Assembly: GCA_964575865.1 (NCBI GenBank)
Contig: CAZNSZ010000002.1
Coordinates: 390 to 64,389 of the forward strand
Source of the DNA: an uncultured Bacteroides sp.
Lineage (GTDB): Bacteria > Bacteroidota > Bacteroidia > Bacteroidales > GCA-2748055
DNA: 64,000 nucleotides
Direction of reading: 5' to 3'
Below are positions 6,558-64,000 of the stretch, piece by piece. Numbering within the stretch: the first letter of the stretch is position 1; every line of letters starts with the position of its first letter. A model generated the notes under the pieces. It was given only the letters and a program-made list of their open reading frames with translations, did not search any database and was not told the origin of the DNA. The position numbers and the translations under genes were made by a program.

Positions 6558-6574
6558 TGCAGCTTCATGGGTAT

Positions 6575-28051: not shown

Positions 28052-28067
28052 GGTTTATCCTTTGCTC

Positions 28068-30450: not shown

Positions 30451-30480
30451 GTGATTCACAATTCAGGTAAATATATTGAA

Positions 30481-30488
30481 TATGTTTG
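30481..30488 (+). promoter_or_regulatory. -7 promoter box TATGTTTG (TAnnTTTG) for the divergent sensor operon
   Basis: Exact match, about 50 nt upstream of ATG 30540 in the divergent hydC / ferredoxin intergenic region. Confidence 0.4.
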
Positions 30489-30503
30489 TTATTCAGCAAA
30501 CAA
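30486..30503. promoter_or_regulatory. Candidate Rex operator in divergent hydrogenase promoter region (TTGTTAT-TCAG-CAAACAA)
   Basis: An 18-bp imperfect palindrome matching 15 of 18 positions of TTGTTAAnnnnTTAACAA. It overlaps the TAnnTTTG box and lies between hydC (30450) and the 2Fe-2S gene (30540). Confidence 0.35.
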
Positions 30504-30539
30504 TACAATAATTTATTACCTTTATCCAGTTCCGGACCG

Positions 30540-30833
30540 ATGGCAGCCACAAAGAAAGAAATAATGATCTGCATGGGCAGTTCCTGCTTCAGCAGGGGAA
30601 ACAGGGGCAGCCTGCCCATGATCCAGAAATACCTCAGGGAACACGGGCTGGAGGGGGAGGTGATCCTGAAGGGGAACCACTGTTTCAGCAATTGCAGCGA
30701 GGGACCGGTACTGAAAATCGGCGGGAAGATCTACACCCGCGTCACGGGTGAACGGATCCCCGGGATCATGGAGAATGAATTCGGAGCATCAAAACCAGCA
30801 GAGGATGGAACCCCTTCTGACAATCAGCAGTGA
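30540..30833 (+). CDS. Thioredoxin-like [2Fe-2S] ferredoxin domain protein
   Basis: Start at ATG 30540 (MAATKKEIMICMGSSCFSRGN). The Cys pattern is CMGSSC ... CFSNC followed by EGPVL. It is about 97 aa. Confidence 0.8.
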   Translation: MAATKKEIMICMGSSCFSRGNRGSLPMIQKYLREHGLEGEVILKGNHCFSNCSEGPVLKIGGKIYTRVTGERIPGIMENEFGASKPAEDGTPSDNQQ

Positions 30834-48744: not shown

Positions 48745-49014
48745 ATGAAAAAAGTATTAGCAGTTCTGACGCTGGCATTATTCATCGGTGGGATCACTGT
48801 ACCGGCAGTGGCAGCCATCAACAACAATATGACCGTGATCACCATGACTGAAGAGGATCCGGCCAAGAAGACCACCGAGAAGAAATCAGAAACCAAAGCC
48901 AAAAGTGGTGATTGCGCCGCTCCGGCCGAGAAGAGTGAAACCGCCAAGAAAGCCGAGAAGAAAGGTGGCGACTGCTCCACTCCCGCCGAGGGAAGCGAGA
49001 CCGCAAAAAAGTAG
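48745..49014 (+). CDS. Small secreted K/E-rich protein with internal duplicated GDCxxPAExSETAKK unit
   Basis: Has the signal peptide MKKVLAVLTLALFIGGITVPAVAA and two copies of K(S/G)GDC(A/S)(A/T)PAE(K/G)SETAKK. I recognise no family. Confidence 0.6.
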   Translation: MKKVLAVLTLALFIGGITVPAVAAINNNMTVITMTEEDPAKKTTEKKSETKAKSGDCAAPAEKSETAKKAEKKGGDCSTPAEGSETAKK

Positions 49015-49069
49015 GCTCAAGATCCTTAAAAGTAAGGTCCGTTACATTCAGATTGTGAGTTTTCAGAAA

Positions 49070-49099
49070 CTGTCCCGCGCTTGCGGGACAGTTTTTTTT
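49070..49099 (+). terminator. Rho-independent terminator
   Basis: The 9-bp stem CTGTCCCGC / GCGGGACAG has a 4-nt loop and is followed by T8. It lies about 55 nt after the stop of the small secreted protein gene. Confidence 0.85.
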
Positions 49100-49114
49100 A
49101 TGCCCCGGCTTGGC

Positions 49115-49122
49115 TATATTTG
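49115..49122 (+). promoter_or_regulatory. -7 promoter box TATATTTG (TAnnTTTG) upstream of flavodiiron gene
   Basis: Exact match, 20 nt upstream of ATG 49143 and directly after the terminator. Confidence 0.45.
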
Positions 49123-49142
49123 CACTCAAACCGAACGGATCC

Positions 49143-50351
49143 ATGAATAAGAAACAAATATTGAGCGTTTCCGAAGATGTCAGCTGGATCGGGGTGCTGG
49201 ACAGGGAACTGGTCACTTTCGACATTGTGATGGAAACCAAGTACGGAACCACCTACAATTCCTACTTCATCGATGCACAGAAAAAGACCCTCATCGATAC
49301 CGTCAAGGAGAGCTTCTGGCCATCTTACCGTGAAAAGATCCTGGCCCTGACCGATCCTTCCGAGATCGAATACATCGTTTTCAACCACACCGAACCGGAC
49401 CATTCAGGATCGCTTCCCCATTTGCTTGAACTGGCCCCCAATGCCACTGTAGTGGGGAGCGGGCAGGCATTGACGTACCTTTCCGAAATGATGGAAAGGC
49501 CATTCCACTCCCTGAGGGTGAAGGACGGGGATGTGATCGATCTGGGGAACAAAAAACTGAGGGTGATCGGTGCACCAAACCTCCACTGGCCCGACACCAT
49601 TTACACCTATCTCGAAGAGGAGGGACTGCTGTTCACCTGCGATTCCTTCGGGGCCCATTACGCGGACGAAAGGATGATGGATGACCTGGTGGACGATTAC
49701 TCCGATGCCTATTCCTACTATTTCAACGTCATCCTGAAGCCTTACAGCAAGTTCATGATGAAGGCCATTGAAAAGATCAGGCCGCTTCCGCTGGATATGA
49801 TCTGTCCGGGGCACGGTCCCATCCTCCGCTCCGGGTGGAAAGAGAAGCTGGGGCTCGCCGAAAAAATGGCCGGAGCGTATCTGAACGAGACCATGAAGCA
49901 AAACAGGGTCCTCGTGGCCTATATATCTGCCTACGGGTACACCCGGGCCATGGCCGAACAGGTGGCAGAGGGGCTGAGGAAATCAGGGCTGGTTCAGGTG
50001 GAGGTGGTCGACATTGAACACATCCTGCTGGGGGAGCTGGAGGAACACCTGGTCCGGGCCGACGGGTTGCTCATCGGGTCGCCCACCATCAACCAGAACA
50101 CCCTGCTGCCGGTCTACAGGCTCTTTTCGGTCATCAATCCCATCCGCGATAAAGGAAAACCGGCTGCTGTATTCGGCTCATTCGGCTGGAGCGGCGAAGC
50201 TGTCGGGCTGATTGAGGATCACCTGAGGAACCTGAAGCTGAATGTGATTTGTGAAGGACAGATGGCCAGGTTCCAGCCGGGACAGGAGGATGCCCGGAAG
50301 CTGGTCAGCCTGGGTGAAGAATTCAGCAGGGCCCTGCAGGCAGAAGCCTGA
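49143..50351 (+). CDS. Flavodiiron protein (FprA/ROO type: metallo-beta-lactamase-like + flavodoxin domains)
   Basis: Has the diiron motif NHTEPDHSG and a C-terminal flavodoxin domain (VLVAYISAYGYTRAMAE ... GSPTINQN). There is no rubredoxin domain. Confidence 0.88.
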   Translation: MNKKQILSVSEDVSWIGVLDRELVTFDIVMETKYGTTYNSYFIDAQKKTLIDTVKESFWPSYREKILALTDPSEIEYIVFNHTEPDHSGSLPHLLELAPNATVVGSGQALTYLSEMMERPFHSLRVKDGDVIDLGNKKLRVIGAPNLHWPDTIYTYLEEEGLLFTCDSFGAHYADERMMDDLVDDYSDAYSYYFNVILKPYSKFMMKAIEKIRPLPLDMICPGHGPILRSGWKEKLGLAEKMAGAYLNETMKQNRVLVAYISAYGYTRAMAEQVAEGLRKSGLVQVEVVDIEHILLGELEEHLVRADGLLIGSPTINQNTLLPVYRLFSVINPIRDKGKPAAVFGSFGWSGEAVGLIEDHLRNLKLNVICEGQMARFQPGQEDARKLVSLGEEFSRALQAEA

Positions 50352-53300
50352 TCAGCGTGCCTTCATCAGTTTACCACGGCCTTTGATCACCCCGCCTTCT
50401 TCCCACAGCACCAGGTAGATCCCGTGCGACAGCCGGCTGATATCAAGCTCGTACCTGGTCTGTCCCGGCACGGTCTCCATTGCATCCACCGTTCTTCCCG
50501 AAAGGTCCGTCACCCAGAGGGTGCCCTTTCCGTTACGGCCCTCCGCCATTTCAATGGTTACCCTGTCGGTGGCGGGATTGGGGTAAAGCCGGAGGTCCGC
50601 CGGACTGTTCCTGCGGTCCGGACTGCTTACCTGCGGGGAGCGGTAATCTGCAGTGGCCTGCAGGAACTCCCTGGTATCGCGGTTCTGGATGAAAGCGACC
50701 ACCGCCAGATCCTCAGGATCCTCCACAAAAGCGGGGTATGACCAGTTAAAGGTCCTGGATTCGGACATCCAGGCCGACCAGGCATTCCCGAGCAGTGTTC
50801 CGGTGGGTGAGGGGAGCATGTCCATGACCACGTTGCGGAACGCGGTATCCTGGTTGAGCCCCGTATAGGCGGTCACTTCTGTCTCGATAACCGCCACATA
50901 CAACTGGATGCTGGAGGTGAAGGTATCCGCCAGGCATGTGACCGTGGCCGTAGCCTCCAGGGCACCCTCCGACCACTCTACCTGAATACCCACATTGAAT
51001 GCGGGTATTTCCAGGGAGGCCTGTTTCAGTGCCTCTTCGCTGGGCATCTGTCCCGGTCCCGAGAAATCATACTGTGTACCCGGTGCGGTTCCCCCGTTCA
51101 GCACGGCAAAGGGGACTTCCTGAATCCCGTAATTGAACACCCTGGTGGCGGCGGGATACGGATTATTCTGGTTCATGGGATCGGCACCGGGGAATGCGGT
51201 ATGGTACTGGATATCGATCACACTTTTGCTGTTGGAAGCGGCGAACTCATCGGTGATGTCGTCGGCACCGGCACAGAGGAAACTGGAGGAATTGGTGAAA
51301 TGCTCCAGCACAGAGGTGCGTACCCGGTCGCCGATAAAGATGTTGTCAAATGCAAAACCCTGGTTCCCCATCTGCCTCGTCCCGCCGGTGGCCACGGCAA
51401 TCCTGAGCCTGGCCTGCGGGAGTCCCGAGAGCATCTCCAGGTCATGGGTGGCGGTGACCCACTCCTCATCGGGATCGAACAGCGGCAGGCCCCATCCGGC
51501 CGGGCTGCCACCCGGCAGGTTGATGAGGCTGGCTGCATTGTACCAGTTGCTCCCCTCCCCCACGGAACCGATGGTCTTCCATCCGTCGGTCACCGATTCC
51601 TGGTACTGGAGCACCGCACCGTCGAAACCGGGCACAAAACTCTTCATCAGGTCCAGCTTGATCAGCGGATTCTGGCTGTTCCTGAAGTCAAAACAGGGGC
51701 TCTGCACCCAGGAGTGCTCCAGGTAGTCACCGGATGCCGGTGGCAGGTCCGTGTACCAGGCGTCATCCCCGGCCACCGGCTGGAACCCTGTAAAATCGGG
51801 TTCACCCAGGGTCCAGCTCATGGACGTATCCGCGGAGACAGGGAGCCATCCTGAATCACCGCCGTTGAAGTCCTCGTTGTATCCTGCCGTCAGCTTATAG
51901 GTGGGCTGCAGTGTGATCTCCTTCCGGATCGCATCCGTGCACCCCGAGCTGTTCTCCACCTGCAGGTCCACCGTATAGGTGCCCAGCACCGTGAAGGGGA
52001 TCTCCACCGTGTCCGAACCGGTCCCGATCATCCCCAGGAAACCCCCGTCGGCGGTCCGGAAGGTCCAGATCAGCGTATCCACGGGGGCGGCCCCCGATGC
52101 GGAAACGTTCAGGAAGGTGATTTTCTTTCCGGGCACAAAGCAGTCGGTGAGCCATATGAAATCGGCCACCGGTTCGTCAGAGAGGATGGTGTCCACCGTG
52201 TGGACCGATGCACACCCGTTGGGGGCGGTGGCTGTGAGGCTGATGGTCACAGGTCCCAGGTTCTCATAAAAATGAGACGGATTCTCCAGGGTGCTTTCGT
52301 TCTCCGGACCGCTGCCTGGATCGCCGAAATCCCATAGCCAGCTCTGAACAGAATCCCTGTCCGTGGTGGTGTTGCTGAACTCCACCAGTCCCCCGTCCGC
52401 AGGCAGGCACACCGGTGAAAGGGTGAATCCCGCTTCCGGGGAAAAACGGTTGGTTAACGTAAAGGAGACACCGGCGGAACATCCGTTGGAAGCGTCGTAC
52501 TGCAGGTTGATTTCCGATTCCCCCAGCACTGCCCCTGGATCCCCCGGATCATAGTAGAACCCTTCCTCCTGGTTGCCGGTAACGCCCGGTCCGGTAAAGA
52601 GGTACACAGCAGCGCTATCGGTCTCCGCCAGGCTGGGGACCAGGGGGTAGGGATCGTCGCTGCTGCAGAGGGTTTCGGGCAGTCCCGGAATGGTGATCTC
52701 GCTGAGGCTGTTCACCGAAAAGCGGAATGTTTTGACCAGTTCCAGCCCCTCCCGCCCGTACCGGTACTCCAGGTCATAACTCCCCTGCAACCCTTCCGGG
52801 GCCAGGGTTGCCTCGTTGTCGTCGGGATCCTCATCGGTGATGTAGCCCCCCACTTCGGCACCCGAACCGGCTTCCTTCAGAGCAAAGGTGCCCGTCAGCC
52901 CGTCGTTGTTGGTTCCCCTGATCAGATAGGTTCTTCCGTCGTCACACAGGTTGTCCACGGTATCGCTTCCGTCAAGCAGTGCCACCCCGCCTTCTCCGTA
53001 TAATACGTATAGCGCTGCTTCATCCTTGCTGGCACACCCGAACTGGTTGTAATAGGTATAGGTGATGGTGTGGGGCGATCCCACCGGGGTGGCGATGCGC
53101 GGGTAGAACCTGTTGGCCGATACCCCGACCCCCGTAAAACTGCCACCGGCAGGATCGCCGGTGAGGGGGATCCCCGACTCACTGACAAGGTATGCCCTTC
53201 GTGCCAGAAGGATGGTCACCGGTGTGGTGGGGTTCACACTCAGGGCCACCTGGCCGAATGAGGTACCGGTCACCCCGAACCGGTCCACCACCCGGGTGAT

Positions 53301-53627
53301 CCGGTATATATTGTCCTCCTGGGGGCTCAGCTGGATGGGATGCGGCGAGCTGATGCCGTTGAGCGAGAGGTAAACGCTGTCTTTATCACTCACCTCCACA
53401 CTCCAGGGTCCGTCACCCGACAGGTAGATGTAGGCCGTCACGGAACCTCCCTGGCACACCTCTGTCTCACTGGAGTAAATGGTGGCTGTCGGCGCCAGCA
53501 CGGACTGTGCGGAATTCTGCACCGGCACCTGTCCCCGGGTACGGGCGGGGTGCCCCGTCATGATCATAAGGACCAGGACCAATGCCAGGAACCCCGGTCC
53601 CCTTGTGCTGCGCGCTGCCTTTCCCAT
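50352..53627 (-). CDS. Large T9SS-secreted surface protein (Ig-like/PKD repeats + MAM/LamG-like region + T9SS C-terminal sorting domain)
   Basis: Has a signal peptide and a PKD signature (WLWDFGDPGSGPENESTLENPSHFY ... ISLTAT). The C-terminal CTD reads LRLYPNPATDRVTIEM ... LSHGIYLVLWEEGGVIKGRGKLMK. The ATG overlaps the upstream stop by 1 nt (TGATG). Confidence 0.85.
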   Translation of the reverse strand: MGKAARSTRGPGFLALVLVLMIMTGHPARTRGQVPVQNSAQSVLAPTATIYSSETEVCQGGSVTAYIYLSGDGPWSVEVSDKDSVYLSLNGISSPHPIQLSPQEDNIYRITRVVDRFGVTGTSFGQVALSVNPTTPVTILLARRAYLVSESGIPLTGDPAGGSFTGVGVSANRFYPRIATPVGSPHTITYTYYNQFGCASKDEAALYVLYGEGGVALLDGSDTVDNLCDDGRTYLIRGTNNDGLTGTFALKEAGSGAEVGGYITDEDPDDNEATLAPEGLQGSYDLEYRYGREGLELVKTFRFSVNSLSEITIPGLPETLCSSDDPYPLVPSLAETDSAAVYLFTGPGVTGNQEEGFYYDPGDPGAVLGESEINLQYDASNGCSAGVSFTLTNRFSPEAGFTLSPVCLPADGGLVEFSNTTTDRDSVQSWLWDFGDPGSGPENESTLENPSHFYENLGPVTISLTATAPNGCASVHTVDTILSDEPVADFIWLTDCFVPGKKITFLNVSASGAAPVDTLIWTFRTADGGFLGMIGTGSDTVEIPFTVLGTYTVDLQVENSSGCTDAIRKEITLQPTYKLTAGYNEDFNGGDSGWLPVSADTSMSWTLGEPDFTGFQPVAGDDAWYTDLPPASGDYLEHSWVQSPCFDFRNSQNPLIKLDLMKSFVPGFDGAVLQYQESVTDGWKTIGSVGEGSNWYNAASLINLPGGSPAGWGLPLFDPDEEWVTATHDLEMLSGLPQARLRIAVATGGTRQMGNQGFAFDNIFIGDRVRTSVLEHFTNSSSFLCAGADDITDEFAASNSKSVIDIQYHTAFPGADPMNQNNPYPAATRVFNYGIQEVPFAVLNGGTAPGTQYDFSGPGQMPSEEALKQASLEIPAFNVGIQVEWSEGALEATATVTCLADTFTSSIQLYVAVIETEVTAYTGLNQDTAFRNVVMDMLPSPTGTLLGNAWSAWMSESRTFNWSYPAFVEDPEDLAVVAFIQNRDTREFLQATADYRSPQVSSPDRRNSPADLRLYPNPATDRVTIEMAEGRNGKGTLWVTDLSGRTVDAMETVPGQTRYELDISRLSHGIYLVLWEEGGVIKGRGKLMKAR

Positions 53628-54847
53628 CAAATCCCTCCGGTGTCGTTGGTTTTGATCAGAGAGATCATCCCTGTTTCTTCATAATTGCTGGTTCCGAGTA
53701 TCACCGTGCCGCCATCCTCCGACAGTTCGATATCGGCACCGGACTGGTCGCCTGCCGCCCCGAACAGCACCTGTCCGTCGGGGATATAATCGGAATTGAG
53801 GAACTGCAGGAAGATCTGCCTGTCCCCTCCCGATTCCCTGGTACCCACAATGGCGTACCTGCCGTCTTCGGTCTTCACCATCCGTTCCCCGGACAGGTCC
53901 ACGTCACTTTCGGAGATGGTGGTCAGCAATGCGGAGTTGACTATGGTGGTCCCGTCATTGGTCTCCACCTGGTGGATCACGATCTCGCTGCGGCCTGATA
54001 CAATCCGGTTCCCCAGGAAAAGGAACTGGTTGGGCGCGTCCTCGATCACACAGCTTCCCTTTTCATTTGAAGCCCCCATAGTTAGGAACCTGGGACTTGG
54101 CTTCAGGTCATCGTTAAAACTGATGGCCAGGATATCGGTCACACCTCCCGTTTCATTGAATTTATCAAAGGTACAGGCACAGAGGTACCTGTTTCCCGAG
54201 GTGATGATAAAATTTGCCTGGTTGTTCCTGGGGGTGGGATTCACATAATCAAAGGGGAGACGGACGGAATCCCCTTCCTGCTCCACACCCATGATCAGCA
54301 GGTCCGACCTTCCGTCCCTGACCTTGTAGCCGGCCAGCATGAAGCCGGAGGAGATCCCCTCGGTGGCGCTCAGGATCACCTCGTCATAAACGGAACCGTA
54401 GATCCGGTTCCAGCTCTCCGTCCCGTTGCTTGAAACCTTCACCAGGAAGATGTCCTTCTGGAAGGTGGCGGTTCCCGCCACGGGACGCTCGATGTATCCT
54501 GCCAGGAGAAATCCGCCCTGTCCGCCGCGGATCGTAACGATGGAATTGGCGACCGTCTCCATCTCCATATCCGTTTCCGGATAAAACTTGGGAAACCCCG
54601 ATCTCAGGTTCCCGTACCTGTCGGTGACCATCAGAACCATCCGTTTCCCCAGGTCCGGGAGGGTGGCGGTCCCGCAGATGGCGTACCCGCCGTCGTCAAG
54701 GGCAGCCAGGTCCCGGCCCTCATCCATCAGGTAATCGCCATAGAATTTTATGAACTGATCCGCCTGCTCCGGCGAGATCTCCTGCTCACAGGAGAGCAGT
54801 GCCGCCGCCATCAGGGGAATGACCATGAATTTGAGTGTCCGCTTCAT
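53627..54847 (-). CDS. Lipoprotein with repeated beta-propeller-like units
   Basis: ATG 54847 gives MKRTLKFMVIPLMAAALLSC (lipobox). The protein has recurring units of the type DGGYAICGT / GGFLLAGY / SGFMLAGY / DGRYAIVGT / DGGTVILGT separated by 40-60 aa. Confidence 0.65.
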   Translation of the reverse strand: MKRTLKFMVIPLMAAALLSCEQEISPEQADQFIKFYGDYLMDEGRDLAALDDGGYAICGTATLPDLGKRMVLMVTDRYGNLRSGFPKFYPETDMEMETVANSIVTIRGGQGGFLLAGYIERPVAGTATFQKDIFLVKVSSNGTESWNRIYGSVYDEVILSATEGISSGFMLAGYKVRDGRSDLLIMGVEQEGDSVRLPFDYVNPTPRNNQANFIITSGNRYLCACTFDKFNETGGVTDILAISFNDDLKPSPRFLTMGASNEKGSCVIEDAPNQFLFLGNRIVSGRSEIVIHQVETNDGTTIVNSALLTTISESDVDLSGERMVKTEDGRYAIVGTRESGGDRQIFLQFLNSDYIPDGQVLFGAAGDQSGADIELSEDGGTVILGTSNYEETGMISLIKTNDTGGI

Positions 54848-54859
54848 AACCGCCAATCT

Positions 54860-55984
54860 TTAAAGGTTCCATGCCATGCCGAGGAGCAGGCTCACCTGTT
54901 GCATTCTGAAATCGCTGTCCACATGGTAAAGGATCCACGTAAGGTCCTGGTTGTCGTACCGGTTTTCTTCCCGGTTGACCTGGAGAATCCCGTAGGTGTA
55001 CCTCCCCTCGATGAAGAGGAAGGAGTTCTCAAACGGGATCCGTACCCCGATGCCGCCAAGACCGCTCAGGTTCAGGGACCTCCTGGCATCTTTTACCGGG
55101 ACCGGCTCCACCTCCACATCCCTGAGGAACTCTTCGTAGCTTCTTGTTCCCGATCCTGACGCACTGAGCATGTAATCGCCCGCCACACCGGCACGGAGGT
55201 ACACGCTCACGCGGTCCGCACGCGGATTCAGCCTGAACAGGAAGGAAGCCGGGACCTGGATGTGGTACTGGTGCTCTGTGTATTCATAGGTGGCGAATGA
55301 GAGGGGAGCAGCATTGTAGGAGAAACTGGTGCGGTTGAAGTGCAGCCCGAAACCGGTTTCCACCACCTCCCCCAGCCTCAGGTTCATGACCATCCCTGCC
55401 TGGAAACCGGGCAACATTCCGAAGCTTCCCTCATCCAGGGTGGGATCGCCCACACTGAACCGCTCCAGCAGCTGGGGAAAACTGGCCAGGAATCCCAGCT
55501 GAAATCCCATGGAGTTCCCGTATTCAAAAGGGGGCCTGACGGGTTCCTGCCTCACCGGCCGCTGGACCGGTCGTTGTACCACGGGCTCCTGCTCCACTTC
55601 CGGCTCCTCCTGCAGGTCAGGATCGATTCCCCTTTCCCTCAGCTTCGCGTCCAGCAGGAGGACGAATTCCGCCTGGTCCGTATCCTGTCCCCTGTAATCA
55701 GGGAACTCCTCCACGAACCGCTCCATCATGCCGGCTGCCTCATCCGGAAGAAAATCGAACAGGTAGGCATTGATCACCAGCTTGTATGCCTCCTGACGTG
55801 CCCTTCCGGAAAGCCCGCCCGGTTCGAGGCACGGTACCAGCAGGTCGGGTACCAGTTCCACCATCCCCGCATCATAGGCTTCCCTGGCATCCTGGAACAG
55901 CTGGTTGCAGCTGACCGGATCCTGTGCCTTCAGGGAGAACCCTGTGAGAAAAAGCGGAAATACAATCAGAATCCATTTGCGCAT
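54860..55984 (-). CDS. Outer-membrane protein: N-terminal helical domain + Pro/Glu/Val-rich linker + C-terminal small beta-barrel
   Basis: Has a signal peptide (MRKWILIVFPLFLTGFSLKAQ) and the linker EEPEVEQEPVVQRPVQRPVRQEPVRPP. The C-terminal ~220 aa have alternating strands ending ...LLGMAWNL. The family is not recognised with certainty (PorT/OmpA-like barrel guess). Confidence 0.6.
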   Translation of the reverse strand: MRKWILIVFPLFLTGFSLKAQDPVSCNQLFQDAREAYDAGMVELVPDLLVPCLEPGGLSGRARQEAYKLVINAYLFDFLPDEAAGMMERFVEEFPDYRGQDTDQAEFVLLLDAKLRERGIDPDLQEEPEVEQEPVVQRPVQRPVRQEPVRPPFEYGNSMGFQLGFLASFPQLLERFSVGDPTLDEGSFGMLPGFQAGMVMNLRLGEVVETGFGLHFNRTSFSYNAAPLSFATYEYTEHQYHIQVPASFLFRLNPRADRVSVYLRAGVAGDYMLSASGSGTRSYEEFLRDVEVEPVPVKDARRSLNLSGLGGIGVRIPFENSFLFIEGRYTYGILQVNREENRYDNQDLTWILYHVDSDFRMQQVSLLLGMAWNL

Positions 55985-55995
55985 GTCGGGTTGTT

Positions 55996-58900
55996 TTATT
56001 GGTTCAGACCGGGACAGGTCGCTTCATAGGGGAAGTCATCCCCGAAATACTGGTCCCATTCGGCCACTGTCAGGTTCCGGCTCAGCAGTGAACAGAAATC
56101 ACCCACCATCACCGATGCCTCGGAAGGCCTTCCCACCAGCCTGGGGTAGTCCACGCTCCCGCTGTAAAAATAACGGCTGTTCGCGCTGAAACAAACAGCC
56201 AGTACAAAACCGTTGTTCTCCGAGAATACAAGGGGTGACGCTCCCCAGTCGGAACTGCTCCACAGGTAGACATTCCCGTCATGGGATGCCGCGGCCATGA
56301 AACGGCCATCGGGACTGAATGCCAGATCGCTCACCCTGCTTCCGGGTCCGCTCAGCGTGGACTGTACCTGGCGTCCGTTGCCTGACAGCACCCGGAGGCT
56401 TCCGTCCAGCAGTCCGGCCACCAGTACCTGCCCGTTTGGGCTGAAAGCCAGTGAACGCACATGGTTGCTGCCGAAATCGGTGACCTGGGCAGGCTCGCCG
56501 GATCCGCCTGCATTGACGATAAACAGCTTGCCGTCCCGGGTTCCGTATGCGACCCTTCCCCCGTCTGCTGTGGCAGCCAGTGCGGAAGGCCGCGACGGGG
56601 TGGTGGCCAGGACATTGCTTTCACGGCTCTGGTAGTTCCATAACAGGATCCTGTTCTCCGTCCCCGCGGAAACAAAATTCCCCGAATTGCCCAGGTTCTC
56701 AAGGAACAGCACAATGGTGCCCTGTTCCGTATCGCTGTGGACCACCGTTCCCCTGTTCTCCAGTTCAAGGAAGAGCAGTCCGCCTCCGTTGGTCCCCACC
56801 ACTGCCAGCCGACCGTCGGGGCTTACAGCCAGGCACTCGTTGTTCAGCCCGGTATTGGCCAGTGTGATCTGGGAAGCCCGGTTGGCCAGGTTGCCCGACA
56901 TGATCTTTACCGAACCGTCGCTGCTGATGGTCAGGATACTGCCCGACCTGCGCAACCACTCGATGCCCTTGATGGAATTCCTCAGGTTGGGATAGATGTT
57001 GTAGGCCGGTGAGACCAGTTTCTTGGTGGCCTGGTACAGGCCGTCATAGATCACGGCATTGAACGGATCCCCGCCGTTCCTCTCATGCAGCCGGTAAGCC
57101 TGGTATGCCAGCAATCCCTGTACTTCCGGGTCCCTGTCGATGCTGATGGACTGACTGGCCACCAGCGATGCGGTGGTCAGGGCCCTTCTTCTGGCATCAA
57201 GCCTGGCCCTTTCGGCTGCTTCCCGCTCCCTGCGCTCCCTTTCCGCCGCTGAAGTGCCGGAAGTTTCACGGTCCGGAGGCACCACGGCCTCTGTGCGCTG
57301 CGGTTCGGGTTGCCGCTGTTCAACGATCGTGACCGGGTCCCGCTGCCGGTTGACTTCCTCCTCCACTTCCCCGGACGGATCATTCAATGCCTCACCGCCG
57401 GTTGTCTCCGCAACCGTTCCCGGTGCCGTTTCAGGTAGTGTTTCAGGTACCGACCCGTTGTCACTCAACTCCCCGCCGGGATTTTCCTGAATCCGGGAAG
57501 GAAACTGTTCCCCCTGGGCCAGATCCTCATAGGTCTCTGTGGCCGGGTCCTGGGCCGCTTCTTCCGCAGGCCGGTTCCTTCCGGTGAAAAAGACCACGGC
57601 GAGCACCACCACCAGGAGACCGAGGAATACCGTAATGGCCCGGTTCATGATCAGCCGCCGCCGCTGGAGGACGATCTTGCGCTCCTGTTCCCAGGCATGC
57701 TCCTCCTCGCTGGTGGTCAGGAACACCATGGCCCTTTCAAACGCAGGATTGTACTGGACCCCCCAGGCGGGACTTGGTTTCTGTGTGTTTCTCCAGATAA
57801 TGGCCTGCTGCAGCTCCGGTGGTCTCCAGAGTTCGGTCCTCCCCTGCTGGTAAAGGGCAGAGGCCTCCGATAGTTTCATGTACATGCTGATCGACTCGGC
57901 CTCCTCGTCCACCCATTCCTGTAAACGGGGCCAGAGGTGCACAAGGGCCTCGTGTGAAAGCTCGATCTCACTTTCCGTTTCGAGGACCACCGGGGCCTGG
58001 GGTGCAATGAATGCCCTTCCCGGCTTTCTGAACACCTCCACCACATCGGTGAGCTCTTCCGTGCTGCACTGGGCAATCCTGGCTATGGTGCTCAGGGCCG
58101 ACTGCTTCCGGAAGACCTGGTTCTGCTCGCCTTTGTAGGTGATCGACTTGAAGAGCCGTTCGCATATCTCCTTCTGGAACTGGTTCAACTCCTGGTAGGC
58201 CTCTTCCAGGTGGTCTCCCAGGGCGTTTTTCAGGGTGCCGACGGACTGGTAGTCACTGATGGTGATCGGCTGGTCCCTTTTCCGGTGGTGGCTCCAGTAG
58301 TCCCATGTGCGCATCAGCGCGTGCTGAAGCATGGGCAGGGGCTGTTCCACCTCCTCCAGATCATCCAGCAGGTACTCCTCAAACCCTGCCTCCACGCTGG
58401 CCCCCGCCAGCCGGACCGGTCCTGCAATGGCCCTGGACAGGGCATCCCTGGTCATGGGGGCCAGCAGGTACTTGCTTTTGTTCATCTGCTCCGCCAGGGA
58501 GCGGTAAAGCGAACAGGCATCCATGAAATCGGAACGGATGCTGATCATCACATAGACGGCGGGGCGTTCCGCCTCCACCGCACCCAGCAACAGATCGACC
58601 AGGCGTGTGGTTTCCGGATGCCTTCCGCTTTTCTTTTTCTTCCTGACGGTGGGCCAGCTGATGAACAGTTCCTCAAACTGATCCACCACCAGGTAGAAAT
58701 GGTGGCCTTCCAGACCTTTCCCGGCCACAAGGTCCGCCAGGCTCATGGTGCTGGTGAGGAATGTCTGTACATCCGTCTCGGTGATCTGGTGCGGAAAAAC
58801 CTGCTGGAACCCGCGGGCCAGGTTCTCTATGGGGTTCATTCCGGGCCTGATGGTGATGGGCACCCAGTCCTGTTTCTTGCTGGTGATCAGATCAGGAATG

Positions 58901-59106
58901 ATCCCCGACTGGATCAGTGAGGTCTTTCCACTCCCCGAAGGCCCTACCAGCGCACAGAACCTGTTGGTCTTCAGCAGGCCGAGCACCTCATTGACCGCCG
59001 ATTCGCGACCGAAGAAATATTTATCCTCGGCAGAGGTAAATGACCTGATGCCAGGGAATGGATTTCTTTCAAGCACACCGGTATTGGTTATGGAGGGTTC
59101 GCCCAT
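55996..59106 (-). CDS. STAND-type P-loop NTPase - single TM - WD40-like beta-propeller protein
   Basis: The N-terminus NPFPGIRSFTSAEDKYFFGRE precedes Walker A GPSGSGKTS and Walker B FYLVVDQFEELF. Then come a helical arm, the TM AITVFLGLLVVVLAVVFF, an acidic/Pro-rich and R/E-rich linker, and finally repeated FSPDG/SxDG...W units (LAFSPNGQVLVAG, LAFSPDGRFMAAASHDGNVYLW). Confidence 0.8.
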   Translation of the reverse strand: MGEPSITNTGVLERNPFPGIRSFTSAEDKYFFGRESAVNEVLGLLKTNRFCALVGPSGSGKTSLIQSGIIPDLITSKKQDWVPITIRPGMNPIENLARGFQQVFPHQITETDVQTFLTSTMSLADLVAGKGLEGHHFYLVVDQFEELFISWPTVRKKKKSGRHPETTRLVDLLLGAVEAERPAVYVMISIRSDFMDACSLYRSLAEQMNKSKYLLAPMTRDALSRAIAGPVRLAGASVEAGFEEYLLDDLEEVEQPLPMLQHALMRTWDYWSHHRKRDQPITISDYQSVGTLKNALGDHLEEAYQELNQFQKEICERLFKSITYKGEQNQVFRKQSALSTIARIAQCSTEELTDVVEVFRKPGRAFIAPQAPVVLETESEIELSHEALVHLWPRLQEWVDEEAESISMYMKLSEASALYQQGRTELWRPPELQQAIIWRNTQKPSPAWGVQYNPAFERAMVFLTTSEEEHAWEQERKIVLQRRRLIMNRAITVFLGLLVVVLAVVFFTGRNRPAEEAAQDPATETYEDLAQGEQFPSRIQENPGGELSDNGSVPETLPETAPGTVAETTGGEALNDPSGEVEEEVNRQRDPVTIVEQRQPEPQRTEAVVPPDRETSGTSAAERERREREAAERARLDARRRALTTASLVASQSISIDRDPEVQGLLAYQAYRLHERNGGDPFNAVIYDGLYQATKKLVSPAYNIYPNLRNSIKGIEWLRRSGSILTISSDGSVKIMSGNLANRASQITLANTGLNNECLAVSPDGRLAVVGTNGGGLLFLELENRGTVVHSDTEQGTIVLFLENLGNSGNFVSAGTENRILLWNYQSRESNVLATTPSRPSALAATADGGRVAYGTRDGKLFIVNAGGSGEPAQVTDFGSNHVRSLAFSPNGQVLVAGLLDGSLRVLSGNGRQVQSTLSGPGSRVSDLAFSPDGRFMAAASHDGNVYLWSSSDWGASPLVFSENNGFVLAVCFSANSRYFYSGSVDYPRLVGRPSEASVMVGDFCSLLSRNLTVAEWDQYFGDDFPYEATCPGLNQ

Positions 59107-59138
59107 ATCTACATTCCTTATCTCATTGCTGCGGTTCC

Positions 59139-62100
59139 CTAAACCGATGAACCACCGTTCCGGTTCAGGAAATCACAAAAAACGTGCAATAAACTCCTCT
59201 CATCAAACAATAGTTCAATGAATTTTCCCCTTTCAATCAGGTAGGCTTCGCACGTTCCGATCGCACCAAGATAACGAATTTGCTCCAGAATTTCCGGTTG
59301 GTGTTCCGCAATAATTGCCATACCCGATGAAAGCGGGGAAAAATCCTCTGCCGATGCCGATCGTGCCAGCACCACGTCCTCCGGTTCCGAAAGCTGCTCA
59401 CCGGACCATGGCCTGAGCTCCGAAACCAGTTTGAAAAGAGCATTTATTCCAACCTTCATAAACAACTTCCATGCGGCCAGTTTCATGGTCGTATTCACAT
59501 ACCAGCCGGCAGCGTCTTCGTGCCCCGGAAAACTGTTATCCGGAAAATCGAGCCGCTCCGTCACCATATGGTACCGCTCGGGTTCATTTTTACGCAATAT
59601 TTGGGCTGCGGTTTCACGTATTTTGGGATTCGGGTGAAATCCCTGGGCGATAATTTGTTGTTCATCGTAAAATCTCTCCACATTCCCCATGCGTTCAAGC
59701 ACGCAGATGCGGATATAATCTCCCATCTGGGTACCGTCGCGGTTGAGGATCCGCTTCAGCAACATCTCCACCGGGAAGATATGGATCGGGTACAGTTCCC
59801 TCAGTCTATCAATCTTTTCCCGCACCGTTACATCATGAAAATAGGCGATAAGGACCGATTTCAGCGGTTCTCCAAGCAACAGGTCCAGCAATTCGATGGC
59901 CATTCCACGGTCGTCCGTCTGCCGGTCGAGCAGAATGGCCCGGATCCGCTGCACCGATTTGCGGTCGTAGATCAAAGACATCAGCATCAGGATCAGTTCG
60001 TTCACATCCCAGATCTCATGCTCGATGGCCTGAGCCAGGCTTCCTCCCGGATCGTCCGTCCGGACGGAGATGCGTGCGGCCATGTTCCAGGTCCCGTTGT
60101 GGACCATCCGGATGATGGCATTCTGCACCAGGGCCACCTGGATCTCGGAAGCATGGAACTGATTGTCATAAAGGCCGCGCACCACCGCTGCAAAAACCTC
60201 CCGGTGATGGTAATCCAGTTTATCCAGCAGCAGCTGTGCAGAACGTCCCCCTCCGATGGCCGAGATGACAGAAACGATGCGCAGCTGAAGTCTGGTCCCC
60301 GCCCCCGGCTTGTAAAAGGCAGTTTCCAGTTCATCCAGGACCGATTCTCCCTGTTTCACCAGAGCGGACCATGCAATGGCATAGTGCCGGGGATGATCGA
60401 GGAATTCGATCAGCCTGGTTCCGCTGTTCCCCTCCGGGATCACCCCTGCAGTGGAAATGGCCACACTCTGAATGTCCGGATCCCTGTCCCTGAAAAGGGA
60501 AACAACCTCTGGAAGGAACGAACGGTCCCGTTTCTCTGCCACGTGATACAGGGCGGCGAAGACCTCATTGCTCACCCCCGAATTAAAGGCCTCCCCGATG
60601 ACGTTCTCAGGCTCCGCCTTCTCCCTGATGAACCTGTCCAGCCGCTCCTTGATAAACGCCTCCTGGAGGCCCAGGCGGCTCCGCAGTTTCCGTTTGCTCA
60701 GCATCCTGATCCGCTCCCTGATCCTCGGCACCTTCTCCCTGACCATCAGCTGGTTGATGGTCAGTTCCGGAAGGCCGGGCGAGGATTGAAGCAGGTGGTC
60801 CCAGATCTTTTCACGTACCCCTGCGTGCGGGTGGGTAAGCAGACCAATGAGGTGCTCCCGGGAGGTATAGTGAAAGAAATAGGGATTGAATTCCAGGGCC
60901 TCGGCGGGAAATGCAGTCCTTCCCAGGTCAGCCTTGACCAGCTGGGAAAGCCCCACATCCACCGCTTCGGTAAAACGGTCCGATTCCAGTGTCACCTTGA
61001 GGAGTTTGTGGTAATGCTTGTAAAGGGCGAGGCCCACGAAAAACCAGATGAGCAGGAACAGGAAGAGGATATAGGTCACATGATAGATCTCCACGAAACT
61101 GAGCATCACAAAAAATGCCAGAAGCAGTCCTGCAGCGAAAAGGGCCACCTGGCTCAGCACTCCTTCGATCCCCGATTTGACATGGTGCCGCTCCCTGGGA
61201 TCCAGTGCTTTGTAAATCAGGTTCAGGGAGGGATCTTCCAGGGCATCCTTCATGGTCCGTCCGGAGAACCTGGAAAGCACCACGAGGATGAAAAAATAGG
61301 TGAAGAAATGGGCCTCTGCCGAGAAGCCGTACCGCTCACCCGCCACTGCCGTACCGATGGTCAGGAGCAGAAGCAGGACCGGTGACAGCAACAGGGTGAC
61401 CTGCATCCCGAACTTCTGCTTGATCCAGCCGAAAAGGAACCGTTTCATCATCCAGGCCAGTGCCGCGGCCACAGCCGAAAAATAGCCCAGGAAATAGACC
61501 AGCTCCACCCCGCCCGGATACCGGATCTCGGTCACCGAAAGAAAAAGGAAATGGAGCATCACGGTAACCGCCACCCCCATCACGGCGAAAGAGGCGATCA
61601 ACCCCGTGAAACGGTGAGAAAAAAGCCGGATGGGACCGGTGCTGAAGATCCGCTTCTTGAACCGGGTGTGCCTTTTCCCGATTTTATTCAGGACAAAGAG
61701 CTGTGCACCGGTGGCCGCGATCAGACTGGCCATGACCAGGTAGAGGATCTCCCTGAGGGGCAGGCCCAGGCGCACCAGAAGGGGAGTGGCCACAAAAGCC
61801 AGGATCATCCCTCCGGCCAGGGTGGCTTCGATCAGGCCCCGCAGCTGCTTGCTCCTGCTGGGAGACAGGAATTCCCTGACGGTGATCCAGAAACCGAGCA
61901 GGGTGATCAGGGCGAGGGGCCCTGCAAAGACGAATACCAGGAAATCGAAATGGCCGGGATCCAGCAGGTGGAATCCCAAGAAAAGTGCCGCGGTGATGGC
62001 CAGTGCGGCCACCAGGTTCAGGATGCCGAACGGCCGGACACCAAGCTGTTTGCTGAAATAGCTGTAGATAGTGGCCATGAGGATCCCGGTCAATCCGGAG

Positions 62101-62276
62101 ATCATCATGGCCAGCGGGATCCGGTCCGCCTCAAATGCCTCCAGGAACGCCGCATTGGCTTCCAGCTCCAGTCCGCCTGCAAACAGTCCGGTGGCCAGAG
62201 ACTGCACCAGCAGTGCCAGGATCAACGGGCGGTCACCCTGACCGATCTGCAACAACCTGCCAATACCTGTCCTCAT
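59139..62276 (-). CDS. Fusion protein: 12-TM MFS/nucleotide-translocase-like domain + long HEAT/ARM-like helical region + C-terminal cNMP-binding-like domain
   Basis: Twelve hydrophobic helices can be counted in the first ~430 aa. About 450 aa of helical repeats follow. The last ~110 aa loosely fit a cyclic-nucleotide-binding beta-roll (...GMAIIAEHQ...IRYLGAIGTCEAYLIERGKFIELL). Domain names are by-eye guesses. Confidence 0.6.
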   Translation of the reverse strand: MRTGIGRLLQIGQGDRPLILALLVQSLATGLFAGGLELEANAAFLEAFEADRIPLAMMISGLTGILMATIYSYFSKQLGVRPFGILNLVAALAITAALFLGFHLLDPGHFDFLVFVFAGPLALITLLGFWITVREFLSPSRSKQLRGLIEATLAGGMILAFVATPLLVRLGLPLREILYLVMASLIAATGAQLFVLNKIGKRHTRFKKRIFSTGPIRLFSHRFTGLIASFAVMGVAVTVMLHFLFLSVTEIRYPGGVELVYFLGYFSAVAAALAWMMKRFLFGWIKQKFGMQVTLLLSPVLLLLLTIGTAVAGERYGFSAEAHFFTYFFILVVLSRFSGRTMKDALEDPSLNLIYKALDPRERHHVKSGIEGVLSQVALFAAGLLLAFFVMLSFVEIYHVTYILFLFLLIWFFVGLALYKHYHKLLKVTLESDRFTEAVDVGLSQLVKADLGRTAFPAEALEFNPYFFHYTSREHLIGLLTHPHAGVREKIWDHLLQSSPGLPELTINQLMVREKVPRIRERIRMLSKRKLRSRLGLQEAFIKERLDRFIREKAEPENVIGEAFNSGVSNEVFAALYHVAEKRDRSFLPEVVSLFRDRDPDIQSVAISTAGVIPEGNSGTRLIEFLDHPRHYAIAWSALVKQGESVLDELETAFYKPGAGTRLQLRIVSVISAIGGGRSAQLLLDKLDYHHREVFAAVVRGLYDNQFHASEIQVALVQNAIIRMVHNGTWNMAARISVRTDDPGGSLAQAIEHEIWDVNELILMLMSLIYDRKSVQRIRAILLDRQTDDRGMAIELLDLLLGEPLKSVLIAYFHDVTVREKIDRLRELYPIHIFPVEMLLKRILNRDGTQMGDYIRICVLERMGNVERFYDEQQIIAQGFHPNPKIRETAAQILRKNEPERYHMVTERLDFPDNSFPGHEDAAGWYVNTTMKLAAWKLFMKVGINALFKLVSELRPWSGEQLSEPEDVVLARSASAEDFSPLSSGMAIIAEHQPEILEQIRYLGAIGTCEAYLIERGKFIELLFDERSLLHVFCDFLNRNGGSSV

Positions 62277-62427
62277 GTGGGTTGCTTTCGCGAATCTGAT
62301 AAACAGTACAATTAAGAAAATTAATGGACACCATTTGAAACAAGTAATGAACAGTGGGACCCGGTTGAACGTTCTGAAGCAGTGGTTGCAGAATTATCAC
62401 TATTTTTAAAACTTGCATTCAGCATTC

Positions 62428-63213
62428 ATGTTTGAACCCCACATCGAAGAGAACAGGAAGATCGCTGTCAGGCGCGAAATCGTGTTCGTTATCCTCTCCG
62501 GATTGTTCCTCGGATCGCTGGCCATTCTGAATATCCTGGGGATCTCCAGGCAGATCGACCTCTCCTTCAGCATCGGATCGGTCCGTATTCCTTTTGTGGT
62601 CTTCGTGGGAGTGCTGCCCTATCCCATTACCTTCCTCTGCACAGATTTCATCTCCGAACTGTACGGCAAAAGAAGGGCAAGCCTGCTGGTGTGGGTGGGA
62701 CTGGGCCTCAATATCTGGGTGCTCTTCATCCTCTGGCTGGGCGGGGTGCTTCCGCCGCGAACAGAACTGGGGCCGGACGGCCTGCCCCTCATCGATCACC
62801 CCGACCGCACCTTTTTTCAGATCAGGCAATGGACCAGCATGGCCACCATGGCGTCGATGATTGCCTACCTGACGGCCCAGCTGGTGGATGTGCACGTGTT
62901 CCACCTGCTGAAGAGACTGACCGGAGGGAAGGCGCTCTGGCTGAGGAACAACGGATCCACCCTGACCAGCCAGATGGTTGATTCCATAGCGGTGATCATG
63001 ATCACCTATTTCTTCACCAACGCCATCTCCATCACACCGGGTGAGACGGTGACCCACGGTCTGGTGATCCTGATCCTGTCCAATTATGTCTTCAAAATGA
63101 CCGCGGCACTCTTCGATACCATCCCCTTTTACATAGGGACCAGATGGTTGTCAAATTATCTGCAGATCGATCCCAACCGGGGATACCGGAGTAAGAAAGA
63201 CCGTTCTGTTTAA
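62428..63213 (+). CDS. yhhQ: Queuosine-precursor transporter (YhhQ/VUT, DUF165 family)
   Basis: Has YPITFLCTDFISELYGKRRA and QLVDVHVFHLLK ... RNNGSTLTSQMVDS, typical of YhhQ. The first ATG is at 62428; the ORF-track TTG is at 62413. Confidence 0.85.
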   Translation: MFEPHIEENRKIAVRREIVFVILSGLFLGSLAILNILGISRQIDLSFSIGSVRIPFVVFVGVLPYPITFLCTDFISELYGKRRASLLVWVGLGLNIWVLFILWLGGVLPPRTELGPDGLPLIDHPDRTFFQIRQWTSMATMASMIAYLTAQLVDVHVFHLLKRLTGGKALWLRNNGSTLTSQMVDSIAVIMITYFFTNAISITPGETVTHGLVILILSNYVFKMTAALFDTIPFYIGTRWLSNYLQIDPNRGYRSKKDRSV

Positions 63214-63275
63214 CTATATGCGCTCTACTTTAAACAAAATGTGCTCAGGAGCGTTTCAGTAACAAAATCGATCCC

Positions 63276-64000
63276 GTGAAGACCCTGACCACCCATCTGA
63301 ACACTGCCTCCGAACAGTTCAGCAGCAGGCAACTGTACCACAAGAAGCTGGCAGAGGGACTGAAAACCAAGCTCGCAAAGGTGATCCGCGGCGGTGCGCC
63401 CGGGGCCAGGGAAAAACACCTGGCCAGGGGAAAACTGCTGGCCAGGGACCGGATCAATCTCCTGGTGGATCCCAATACCCCGTTCCTTGAACTGAGCCCG
63501 CTGGCTGCCTTCGACCAGTACGACAACCAGTTTCCCTCGGCGGGGATCGTGACCGGCATCGGCCTGATTCACGGCAAGGAAGCGGTCATCATTGCCAACG
63601 ATGCCACCGTGAAGGGGGGGACCTACATCAAGGAGACCATCAAAAAACACCTCCGCGCCCAGGAGATTGCCCTGCAGAACAGGCTTCCCCTGGTCTACCT
63701 GGTCGATTCGGGCGGGGTCTTCCTTCCCAACCAGGCCGAGGTGTTCCCGGACCGGGACGATTTCGGGAGGATCTTCTATTACCAGGCGCGGCTCTCTGCA
63801 GCGGGGATCCCCCAGGTGGCAGTGGTCATGGGATCATGCACCGCCGGGGGAGCTTATGTACCGGCAATGAGCGATGAGACCATCATCGTCCGGGAACAGG
63901 GTACCATTTTCCTGGGAGGACCGCCGCTGGTGAAGGCTGCCACCGGAGAGGAGGTGACCGCCGAGGAACTGGGAGGCGGACAGGTGCATGCTTCCATTTC
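63276..64000 (+). CDS. Acyl-CoA carboxylase carboxyltransferase (beta) subunit, methylcrotonyl/propionyl-CoA carboxylase type, 3'-truncated by window edge
   Basis: This ORF is not in the ORF track because it is open-ended. My own translation from GTG 63276 is VKTLTTHLN...[27 protein letters not shown]...[12 protein letters not shown]...[10 protein letters not shown]...[19 protein letters not shown]...[16 protein letters not shown]. An in-frame TAA lies at 63231. The start codon is tentative. Confidence 0.85.

Follow-up and report, generated by a model that had tools for sequence, protein, structure and literature searches.

In the current view, STAND and NLR switches sense in the cytoplasm and trigger an effector that is attached to them. 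Nucleoside triphosphatases (NTPases) of the nSTAND1 family from predicted bacterial conflict systems (Kaur, Iyer, Burroughs and Aravind 2021, PMC8195603) and Avs or NLR-like antiviral STAND proteins contain a central NTPase followed by a C-terminal sensor built of repeats, and their logic is that of a nucleotide switch set off by a ligand. Here we describe a unit of five genes, labelled g1 to g5 from its 5′ end, that occupies positions 50352–62276 on the minus strand of a 64,000-nucleotide stretch of DNA (the window) from an uncultured Bacteroides sp. (contig CAZNSZ010000002.1 of assembly GCA_964575865.1). The same labels are used for the encoded proteins. The g2 protein has the domain order of the nSTAND1 and Avs proteins, with WD40 repeats as the sensor, and the switch logic is common to both. 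However, g2 lacks an N-terminal effector or adaptor, and a transmembrane (TM) helix lies between its NTPase and its WD40 repeats, which gives the sensor a predicted location in the periplasm. Furthermore, the sensor is conserved, the locus is fixed among housekeeping genes, and g2 has an obligate membrane partner, g1, which combines a nucleotide-transporter (NTT)-like domain with HEAT repeats. The hallmarks of Avs-type defence, which are an N-terminal effector, a match to a defence model, and island-like patchiness together with a fast-evolving sensor in a clade-level comparison, are all absent. We propose, with a probability of roughly 45%, that the five genes form a signalling module of Bacteroidota that spans the envelope and is inherited vertically.

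Other described systems resemble individual parts of the cassette. The membrane domain of g1 has the twelve-helix major facilitator superfamily (MFS) fold of the NTT/TLC transporters, such as Chlamydia pneumoniae NTT1 and Arabidopsis AtNTT1 (PDB 9j3n, 9j3l). However, g1 is 16–17% identical to the NTTs, falls below the cut-off of the Pfam TLC family, and has about 600 additional cytoplasmic residues, which contain HEAT repeats and the remnant of a cyclic-nucleotide-binding (CNB) domain. Nucleotide transport is a putative activity of g1. The combination of a membrane domain with a C-terminal CNB domain, found in the g1 family (PF00027 in a quarter of the sampled members), is shared with Pycsar effectors of the PycTM type and with CNB-regulated channels. 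Unlike the Pycsar systems, the cassette contains no cyclase, the phosphate-binding cassette of g1 is deleted, and the membrane domain of g1 has a transporter fold instead of a few pore-forming helices.

In its bitopic layout, a predicted periplasmic propeller joined through a TM helix to a signalling domain in the cytoplasm, g2 is like the Bacteroidota hybrid two-component sensors with Reg_prop/Y_Y_Y propellers. The output domain of g2, in contrast, is a STAND NTPase and not a histidine kinase with a response regulator, and there is no DNA-binding output. Cargo proteins of the type IX secretion system (T9SS) are known with outer-membrane partners, as in SprB with SprF/PorP-like proteins and PorE with TPR and WD40 domains, and g5 is likewise encoded beside a barrel (g3) and a propeller lipoprotein (g4). 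However, g3 is not PorP/SprF-like and scores below the PorT/SprT cut-off, and the sorting domain of g5 is of type A, not type B. Neither STAND NTPases nor NTT-like proteins are known among T9SS components.

All parts of the cassette belong to known families: nSTAND1, NTT-like MFS fold, HEAT, OMP_b-brl_2 barrel, beta-propeller and type A T9SS cargo. Undescribed in the libraries and literature searched is the combination of a membrane-anchored STAND protein that has a conserved, predicted periplasmic WD40 domain with an obligate NTT-HEAT-CNB partner and a coupled barrel, lipoprotein and T9SS cargo. Searches of Pfam, NCBIfam, PADLOC, PDB and the literature identified no characterised counterpart of the cassette, and the preliminary description of the window, made from the sequence alone, could not name one either.

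Organization of the five-gene unit

The unit consists of open reading frames of 1045 amino acids (g1, 59139–62276), 1036 amino acids (g2, 55996–59106), 374 amino acids (g3, 54860–55984), 406 amino acids counted from the ATG (g4, 53627–54847), and 1091 amino acids (g5, 50352–53627), all on the minus strand. In the NCBI annotation, g4 starts at a methionine seven codons downstream, which shortens the protein to 399 residues. Direct reading of the junctions confirmed the arrangement given in the preliminary description, in which five large minus-strand genes are separated by 32 nucleotides (g1–g2), 11 nucleotides (g2–g3) and 12 nucleotides (g3–g4), and g4 and g5 have one base in common in the sequence TGATG. 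The sole non-coding stretch longer than 32 nucleotides is the 5′ intergenic region (62277..62412) between g1 and a divergent gene for a Vut_1 transporter, and it is the presumed promoter region of the unit. The Vut_1 gene marks the upstream boundary, and a convergent gene for a flavodiiron protein, whose stop codon abuts that of g5, marks the downstream boundary. Identical loci are present in two public sequencing runs, SRR7091317 and SRR22452310.

Consensus scans of the unit identified no convincing internal terminators or sigma-70 promoters, with 15 terminator-like sites found and 12.6 expected. Such promoter scans are poorly suited to the promoters of Bacteroidota, and their counts were no better than those of shuffled sequences. 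An Rfam scan of positions 49000–64000 yielded chance-level matches alone, none of them in the intergenic region upstream of g1. The five genes share their direction, their order is conserved, and their junctions are too short to hold promoters, from which we infer that g1–g5 are co-transcribed as one unit. A 621-residue open frame (59520–61385, plus strand) runs antisense within g1, and shorter antisense frames are located within g2 and g5. We take these to be shadow open reading frames, a kind common in GC-rich coding sequence.

Conservation of the core pair and of the outer-membrane arm

Gene order was compared among 79 loci anchored on g2, with one genome per species, and 49 loci from metagenomes anchored on g1. 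The five products and the flanking genes were placed in each locus by tblastn, and the related loci are designated by L-numbers. Based on the identity of their g2, the loci were divided into class A (at least 45%, 84 loci), class B (34–45%) and class C (below 34%), and genes were counted where the contig was long enough. The same gene order is found in more than 100 independent loci. In class A, all four companions of g2 are present at every countable locus (g1 82/82, g3 58/58, g4 49/49, g5 23/23), and in class B nearly so (g1 8/8, g3 5/6, g4 4/5, g5 3/4). Synteny across Bacteroidota had been set beforehand as a test of the five-gene arrangement, and the arrangement passed it. The median gaps between successive genes in the homologs are 36, 12, 1 and 25 nucleotides, and the order g3-g4-g5 is constant wherever these genes are present. 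Judged from these comparisons, the five genes are genuinely linked, and their linkage is under selection.

The genes differ in how far their conservation extends. The g1 gene accompanies g2 in 117/117 testable loci, down to 29% identity. The g1–g2 pair is kept in 27/27 class C loci, at about 30% identity, and also in other genomic contexts. Therefore, the pair constitutes the core of the system, and g3–g5 constitute an outer-membrane and surface arm. The preliminary description, which treated the five genes as one unit, holds for close relatives, where they are conserved together, but the unit is not uniform, since g1 and g2 are invariant and g3–g5 are accessory.

Bacteroidales from fens and peat carry the g1–g2 pair alone, between genes for topoisomerase IV/shikimate kinase and iPGM/DUF3109. 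The cassette L082, which adjoins riboflavin genes, comprises g1 with a Pfam cNMP_binding domain, a 498-residue DUF4062/TIR_2-like protein, g2, an outer-membrane barrel, and proteins of 476 and 4878 residues. The cassette L053 belongs to Splendidivirga corallicola BMA10, a cultured member of the class Cytophagia, and the full cassette also occurs in L123, L126 and L130. In class B, g5 has about double the length, 1875–2232 residues, and a HAMP-PP2C gene stands between g1 and g2. The fifth gene of distant cassettes encodes a large surface protein with Ig_7 (CHU_C-associated), Laminin_G_3 or SprB-repeat domains. In three class A loci (L017, L022 and L037), an additional stretch of about 0.9–3.9 kb lies between g4 and the match to g5. 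A Pvc16_N gene (contractile injection system or phage-tail-like; L130:21458-22030) and a GH18 chitinase gene are located just downstream of the L130 cassette and are probably unrelated to it.

The wider g1 family has partners other than g2. In L128 (2727–8342), a distant g1-like gene of the NTT-HEAT type is followed by a sensor with a Reg_prop/Y_Y_Y periplasmic propeller in place of g2, and therefore the g1 family may pair generally with bitopic sensors that carry a periplasmic propeller. The distant g1-like genes of L125 and L083 are adjoined by neither g2 nor a Reg_prop/Y_Y_Y sensor.

The membrane-anchored STAND NTPase g2

The N-terminal part of g2 is an nSTAND1 NTPase (amino acids 16–422, nucleotides 57841–59061), predicted to be cytoplasmic, which matches PF20703 over profile positions 1–374 of 379 (E = 3.5e-87, 293.9 bits against a gathering score of 27.1). 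It is followed by a conserved juxtamembrane segment, a single hydrophobic TM helix (amino acids 490–508, nucleotides 57583–57639) and a linker rich in Pro, Glu and Thr (amino acids 515–645), which is hypervariable among homologs. The remainder of the protein (amino acids 650–1036, nucleotides 55999–57159) comprises a WD40 propeller (E = 4e-22), with Pfam repeats at about amino acids 700–990, and a cysteine-containing tail. The domain assignments bear out the earlier view of g2 as a STAND NTPase with one TM helix and a WD40-like half. According to Pfam, the NTPase begins at amino acid 16, and no effector or adaptor domain precedes it. Among solved structures, P-loop fragments alone matched the nSTAND1 domain.

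The Walker A and B motifs are intact, with G55, G60, K61, D142 and E145 invariant in 26 homologs, and the cysteines C972, C1005 and C1031 are also invariant. All 95 complete homologs retain Walker A, and 92 of them have exactly one TM helix, at the same position; at least two cysteines occur within the last 80 residues of 93/95.

An NTPase must be cytoplasmic, and with exactly one TM helix in g2 the WD40 half would then lie in the periplasm. Six Lys or Arg residues flank the helix on its N-terminal side and two on its C-terminal side. The hypervariable linker, the invariant cysteines and the uniform architecture of the homologs fit the predicted periplasmic position. The mean pairwise identity is 69.9% in the juxtamembrane segment, 66.3% in the C-terminal tail, 62.6% in the WD40 domain, 58.5% in the NTPase, and 16% in the linker. 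The WD40 domain is not diversifying. That this domain, the tail and the juxtamembrane segment are all better conserved than the NTPase agrees with an invariant partner encoded by the cell itself and not with a foreign ligand that varies.

The NTT-like membrane protein g1

The g1 protein is formed of an NTT/TLC-type MFS domain (amino acids 1–431, nucleotides 60984–62276), a HEAT solenoid predicted to be cytoplasmic (amino acids 443–908, nucleotides 59553–60950), and a degenerate CNB-like C-terminal domain (amino acids 920–1045, nucleotides 59142–59519). Pfam detects only weak HEAT repeats in g1, and the protein has no match to Pfam TLC (PF03219). The AlphaFold2 model (pLDDT 82, pTM 0.77) contains 12 TM helices, an alpha-solenoid and a small alpha/beta domain at the C-terminus. 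In Foldseek, the first five places for the membrane domain are taken by the ATP/ADP translocators AtNTT1 and CpNTT1 (E ~1e-7, TMt 0.65–0.69). The family profile matches CpNTT1 with an E-value of 5.6e-22 and designed HEAT (alphaRep) proteins with 4e-27. The alignment of g1 with NTTs includes stretches resembling the motifs FW...KR and Y..LD.

When clustered at 50% identity, the g1 family falls into at least 504 groups (E<=1e-30), and in almost all of the 150 best-matching groups the proteins are 1000–1090 residues long. Among 44 diverse members, Pfam detects HEAT_2 in 42, MFS_1 in 17, cNMP_binding in 11 (best 1.4e-13) and TLC in three.

The relationship of the C-terminal domain to CNB domains is evident at the level of the family profile, which matches the CNB domain of cGMP-dependent kinase (PKG) with an E-value of 1.6e-4. 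The isolated C-terminus of g1 has no Pfam match, and the model of this domain has three strands only, in contrast to the eight-stranded beta-roll of CNB (PF00027). The phosphate-binding cassette is deleted in g1, whereas the homologs P0208 and P0209 have FGE...PR.A[ST]V on that segment. Therefore, the C-terminal end appears to be what remains of a CNB domain and probably does not bind cyclic nucleotides, and binding of cyclic nucleotide monophosphates (cNMP) by g1 was rejected as a candidate function. Of the features ascribed to g1 in the preliminary description, the 12-TM part, now specified as NTT/TLC-like, and the HEAT-like region were upheld, but the cNMP-like end was not, except as a trace in the family profile.

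The outer-membrane and surface proteins g3, g4 and g5

In g3, a signal peptide precedes a TPR-like domain of about 100 residues, which is helical and periplasmic. A linker rich in Pro, Glu and Gln (amino acids ~120–155) connects it to a beta-barrel of the PorT-class family OMP_b-brl_2 (amino acids 160–333, nucleotides 54986–55507, E = 1.3e-9), in agreement with the outer-membrane barrel predicted previously. The match to the PorT/SprT model NF052311 is weak (13.1 bits against a cut-off of 125), so that the generic OMP_b-brl_2 family alone matches. Orthologs of g3 in distant cassettes have OMP_b-brl_2 matches and weak TPR matches.

The g4 protein (53627–54847) is a predicted lipoprotein with the lipobox LLSC (Cys20), and its AlphaFold2 model (pLDDT 88.8, pTM 0.87) is a single beta-propeller. 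The lipobox and the model substantiate the earlier assignment of g4 as a propeller lipoprotein. No Pfam or NCBIfam family matches g4, and none of its 267 homologs is annotated. The best PDB match is the propeller of CylK (E = 2.9e-14, TMq 0.73, 13% identity). A catalytic role for g4 by analogy to CylK was rejected: the identity is 13%, the two proteins have nothing beyond the propeller scaffold in common, and many unrelated propellers match.

The g5 protein begins with a signal peptide, visible as a hydrophobic leader, and an Ig-like region. Two PKD domains follow (amino acids ~404–560, nucleotides 51948–52418, PKD_4 1.4e-15), then a middle region without an assignment, a weak Omp28-like region (amino acids ~830–990, E = 7e-5, below the Omp28 cut-off), and a type A T9SS C-terminal sorting domain (amino acids 1015–1079, nucleotides 50391–50585, Por_Secre_tail 4.1e-11). 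The sorting domain (amino acids 1015–1083) exceeds the thresholds of both PF18962 (43.4 bits against 27) and TIGR04183 (27.8 against 23). The family profile of g5 matches structures of the ColH PKD domain and of a T9SS C-terminal domain. Therefore the PKD domains and the sorting domain named in the preliminary description were found, but its MAM/LamG-like region was dropped, as the segment of amino acids 560–790 has no Pfam match and the family profile has no PDB match there. With a median identity of 47% and lengths from 815 to more than 4800 residues, g5 is the least conserved of the five genes. It is predicted to be an adhesin-like surface protein delivered by the T9SS.

Genes inserted between g1 and g2 in relatives

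Some related cassettes contain additional genes between g1 and g2. In relatives whose g2 is ~33–37% identical, this position is occupied by a gene for a 673-residue membrane protein with HAMP and SpoIIE (PP2C phosphatase) domains (L043:7906-9927; also L042, L045, L048–L050, L057, L058, L069 and the JGI contig of P0205). Cytophagia-type and some Bacteroidales cassettes have, between the same two genes, a gene for a DUF4062 + TIR_2-like protein of ~450–500 residues (L053:8467-9957; L082:13313-14809; L130:13284-14645; L047:8554-9936; L057:7592-8950; L127:9449-end). The PP2C gene and the TIR-like gene are present together in L047 and L057. At the provisionally assigned position of the catalytic glutamate of the TIR-like/DUF4062 protein, four of five complete homologs have glutamine, so the protein may be inactive. 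A recent study reports DUF4062 to be an effector with NADase activity in Avs-type defence (bioRxiv 10.64898/2026.09.04.749371). The cassette of the window contains no effector domain. The earlier statement that no effector is recognisable is thus correct for the window, but it does not extend to the related cassettes with TIR-like/DUF4062 and/or HAMP-PP2C genes.

Proposed function and alternative explanations

The predicted locations of the five proteins span the inner membrane, periplasm, outer membrane and cell surface, as had been anticipated. The comparisons point to a module composed of a two-gene inner-membrane core (g1 and g2), an optional cytoplasmic insert (PP2C and/or TIR-like), and an outer-membrane and surface arm (g3–g5). 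In the core, g2 would be an ATP-dependent STAND switch with its NTPase in the cytoplasm and its WD40 domain placed in the periplasm by the TM helix and the long flexible linker. Its partner g1 would be a nucleotide-transporter-like MFS protein that exposes a large cytoplasmic HEAT platform. The arm, made of the TPR-like domain and barrel of g3, the lipoprotein propeller g4 and the surface protein g5, would be coupled to this core. The periplasmic WD40 domain may read the state of the surface protein and the outer-membrane complex, and the reading may drive nucleotide exchange or oligomerization of the cytoplasmic NTPase. Because g2 has no N-terminal effector, the NTPase is proposed to act on the HEAT domain of g1, which would alter the activity of the transporter-like domain. 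Where relatives encode the PP2C phosphatase or the TIR-like protein, either may be a further target of the NTPase. The domain architectures, the conserved linkage and the division into core and arm are observed, whereas we infer how the WD40 domain is oriented, which proteins touch, and the direction and output of signalling. The pairing in L128, which has the same logic with a different sensor, fits a signalling function.

A more specific version of this mechanism is possible but doubtful. The module could be a trans-envelope NLR-like switch, in which surface contact through the adhesin is relayed by the outer-membrane complex, the periplasmic WD40 domain, STAND oligomerization and the NTT-HEAT protein g1 into a changed nucleotide flux or nucleotide-based signalling. 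The TIR-like and PP2C variants would then be alternative outputs.

Several observations weigh against an envelope-spanning signalling module. Most class C loci have no detectable arm genes (g3 8/27, g4 5/25, g5 2/15), and therefore the core appears to work without the arm; g3–g5 could have a separate function and merely travel with the core. In class A, the flanking genes are syntenic too, with the flavodiiron gene present in 23/23 loci and the Vut_1 gene likewise conserved, so that part of the conservation of gene order reflects shared ancestry. The predicted periplasmic position of the WD40 domain is derived from conserved cysteines, from the single TM helix and from the positive-inside rule. 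With one exception, the carriers are uncultured metagenome-assembled genomes. Finally, nSTAND1 proteins have otherwise been described in conflict systems (PMC8195603), and six of the related cassettes include the TIR-like/DUF4062 gene. Nevertheless, trans-envelope signalling is most likely the function of the cassette, and a classical defence role is disfavoured.

The cassette could alternatively be a conflict system for anti-phage defence, abortive infection or kin recognition, which we consider unlikely. By analogy with STAND/Avs systems and with Pycsar-type CNB-TM effectors, the STAND protein would sense invasion or a breach of the envelope, g1 would drain or leak nucleotides as a membrane effector, and the TIR-like NADase would help in relatives. 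The nSTAND1 family was defined in predicted counter-invader systems (PMC8195603; PMC10907252), and the genuine cNMP_binding domain fused to the membrane domain in 11/44 g1-family members is consistent with such a role, as are the TIR-like/DUF4062 genes of relatives and the low conservation and highly variable length of g5. However, the cassette of the window is free of effectors, with g2 beginning 15 residues before its NTPase and 32 nucleotides after g1. The matches of g2 to PADLOC models cover only P-loop or WD40 fragments, the best being HEAT-ARM_XIII (3.1e-10) over the WD40 domain, and g1 and g3–g5 have none. The locus is fixed between housekeeping genes across the clade instead of residing in a variable island. 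The presumed sensor has a predicted periplasmic location and exceeds the NTPase in conservation, which is the opposite of antigen-type sensors, and the CNB remnant of g1 lacks the phosphate-binding cassette. The glutamine at the provisionally assigned catalytic position of most TIR-like/DUF4062 homologs also speaks against a conflict role.

Signals could also run from the inside to the outside, although this is equally questionable. In this alternative, g3 and g4 would anchor or handle g5, and the g1–g2 pair would regulate the assembly, deployment, anchoring or release of the adhesin according to the nucleotide status of the cytoplasm, with effects on adhesion, gliding or aggregation. It is favoured by the type A T9SS sorting domain of g5, the PorT/OMP_b-brl_2 class of the g3 barrel and the constant order of g3-g4-g5. 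The fifth gene of distant cassettes can be giant, as in L082, and encodes Ig_7, SprB-repeat or Laminin_G_3 domains, which are typical of gliding or adhesion proteins. Nevertheless, g3 scores below the PorT/SprT cut-off and does not resemble PorP/SprF, and the direction of signalling is undecidable from sequence. Many genomes have the g1–g2 core without any of g3–g5, and therefore handling of an adhesin cannot be the primary role of the core.

That the five genes are unrelated neighbours, adjacent only through the shared ancestry of a conserved chromosomal region, is highly improbable and strongly disfavoured: the conserved class A flanks and the stability of the whole region in the clade would agree with it, but the cassette is kept with different flanks and in another class, g1 accompanies g2 at every testable locus, the junctions are too short for independent promoters, and the predicted locations are complementary.

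Genomic surroundings

The five-gene unit is surrounded by core genes, which encode the flavodiiron protein, the Vut_1 transporter, phosphatidylserine decarboxylase, CdsA and FtsH. Genes for Lon, FeFe-hydrogenase subunits and a multihaem cytochrome are located farther away. There are no tRNA genes in the window and no mobile-element genes near the unit. A 1147-residue sensor kinase (11312–14755, plus strand) has a Reg_prop/Y_Y_Y periplasmic double propeller together with HisKA and HATPase_c domains, and belongs to the same sensor class as the protein paired with the g1-like gene in L128. An FeFe-hydrogenase-type/NuoF-like cluster (26345–32664) contains Fe_hyd_lg_C with Fer2/Fer4, Complex1_51K, and a second hydrogenase-like protein with PAS, indicating an anaerobic, hydrogen-metabolising host. 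The multihaem cytochrome (1012–2709, minus strand) has 565 residues, paired CXXCH motifs and an MtrC/MtrF-like domain. A 677-residue open reading frame (4596–6629, minus strand) has no Pfam match at E<=1e-5.

Implications for STAND proteins

If the five genes form an envelope-spanning signalling module, the STAND paradigm would be extended to envelope signalling, with sensing outside the cytoplasm, a nucleotide-transporter-like membrane partner, and no effector attached to the switch. The large and uncharacterised family of NTT-HEAT-CNB proteins would acquire a role, and T9SS surface proteins would be linked to an intracellular response. The TIR-like and PP2C variants constitute a natural series that joins a housekeeping-looking module to components of conflict systems.

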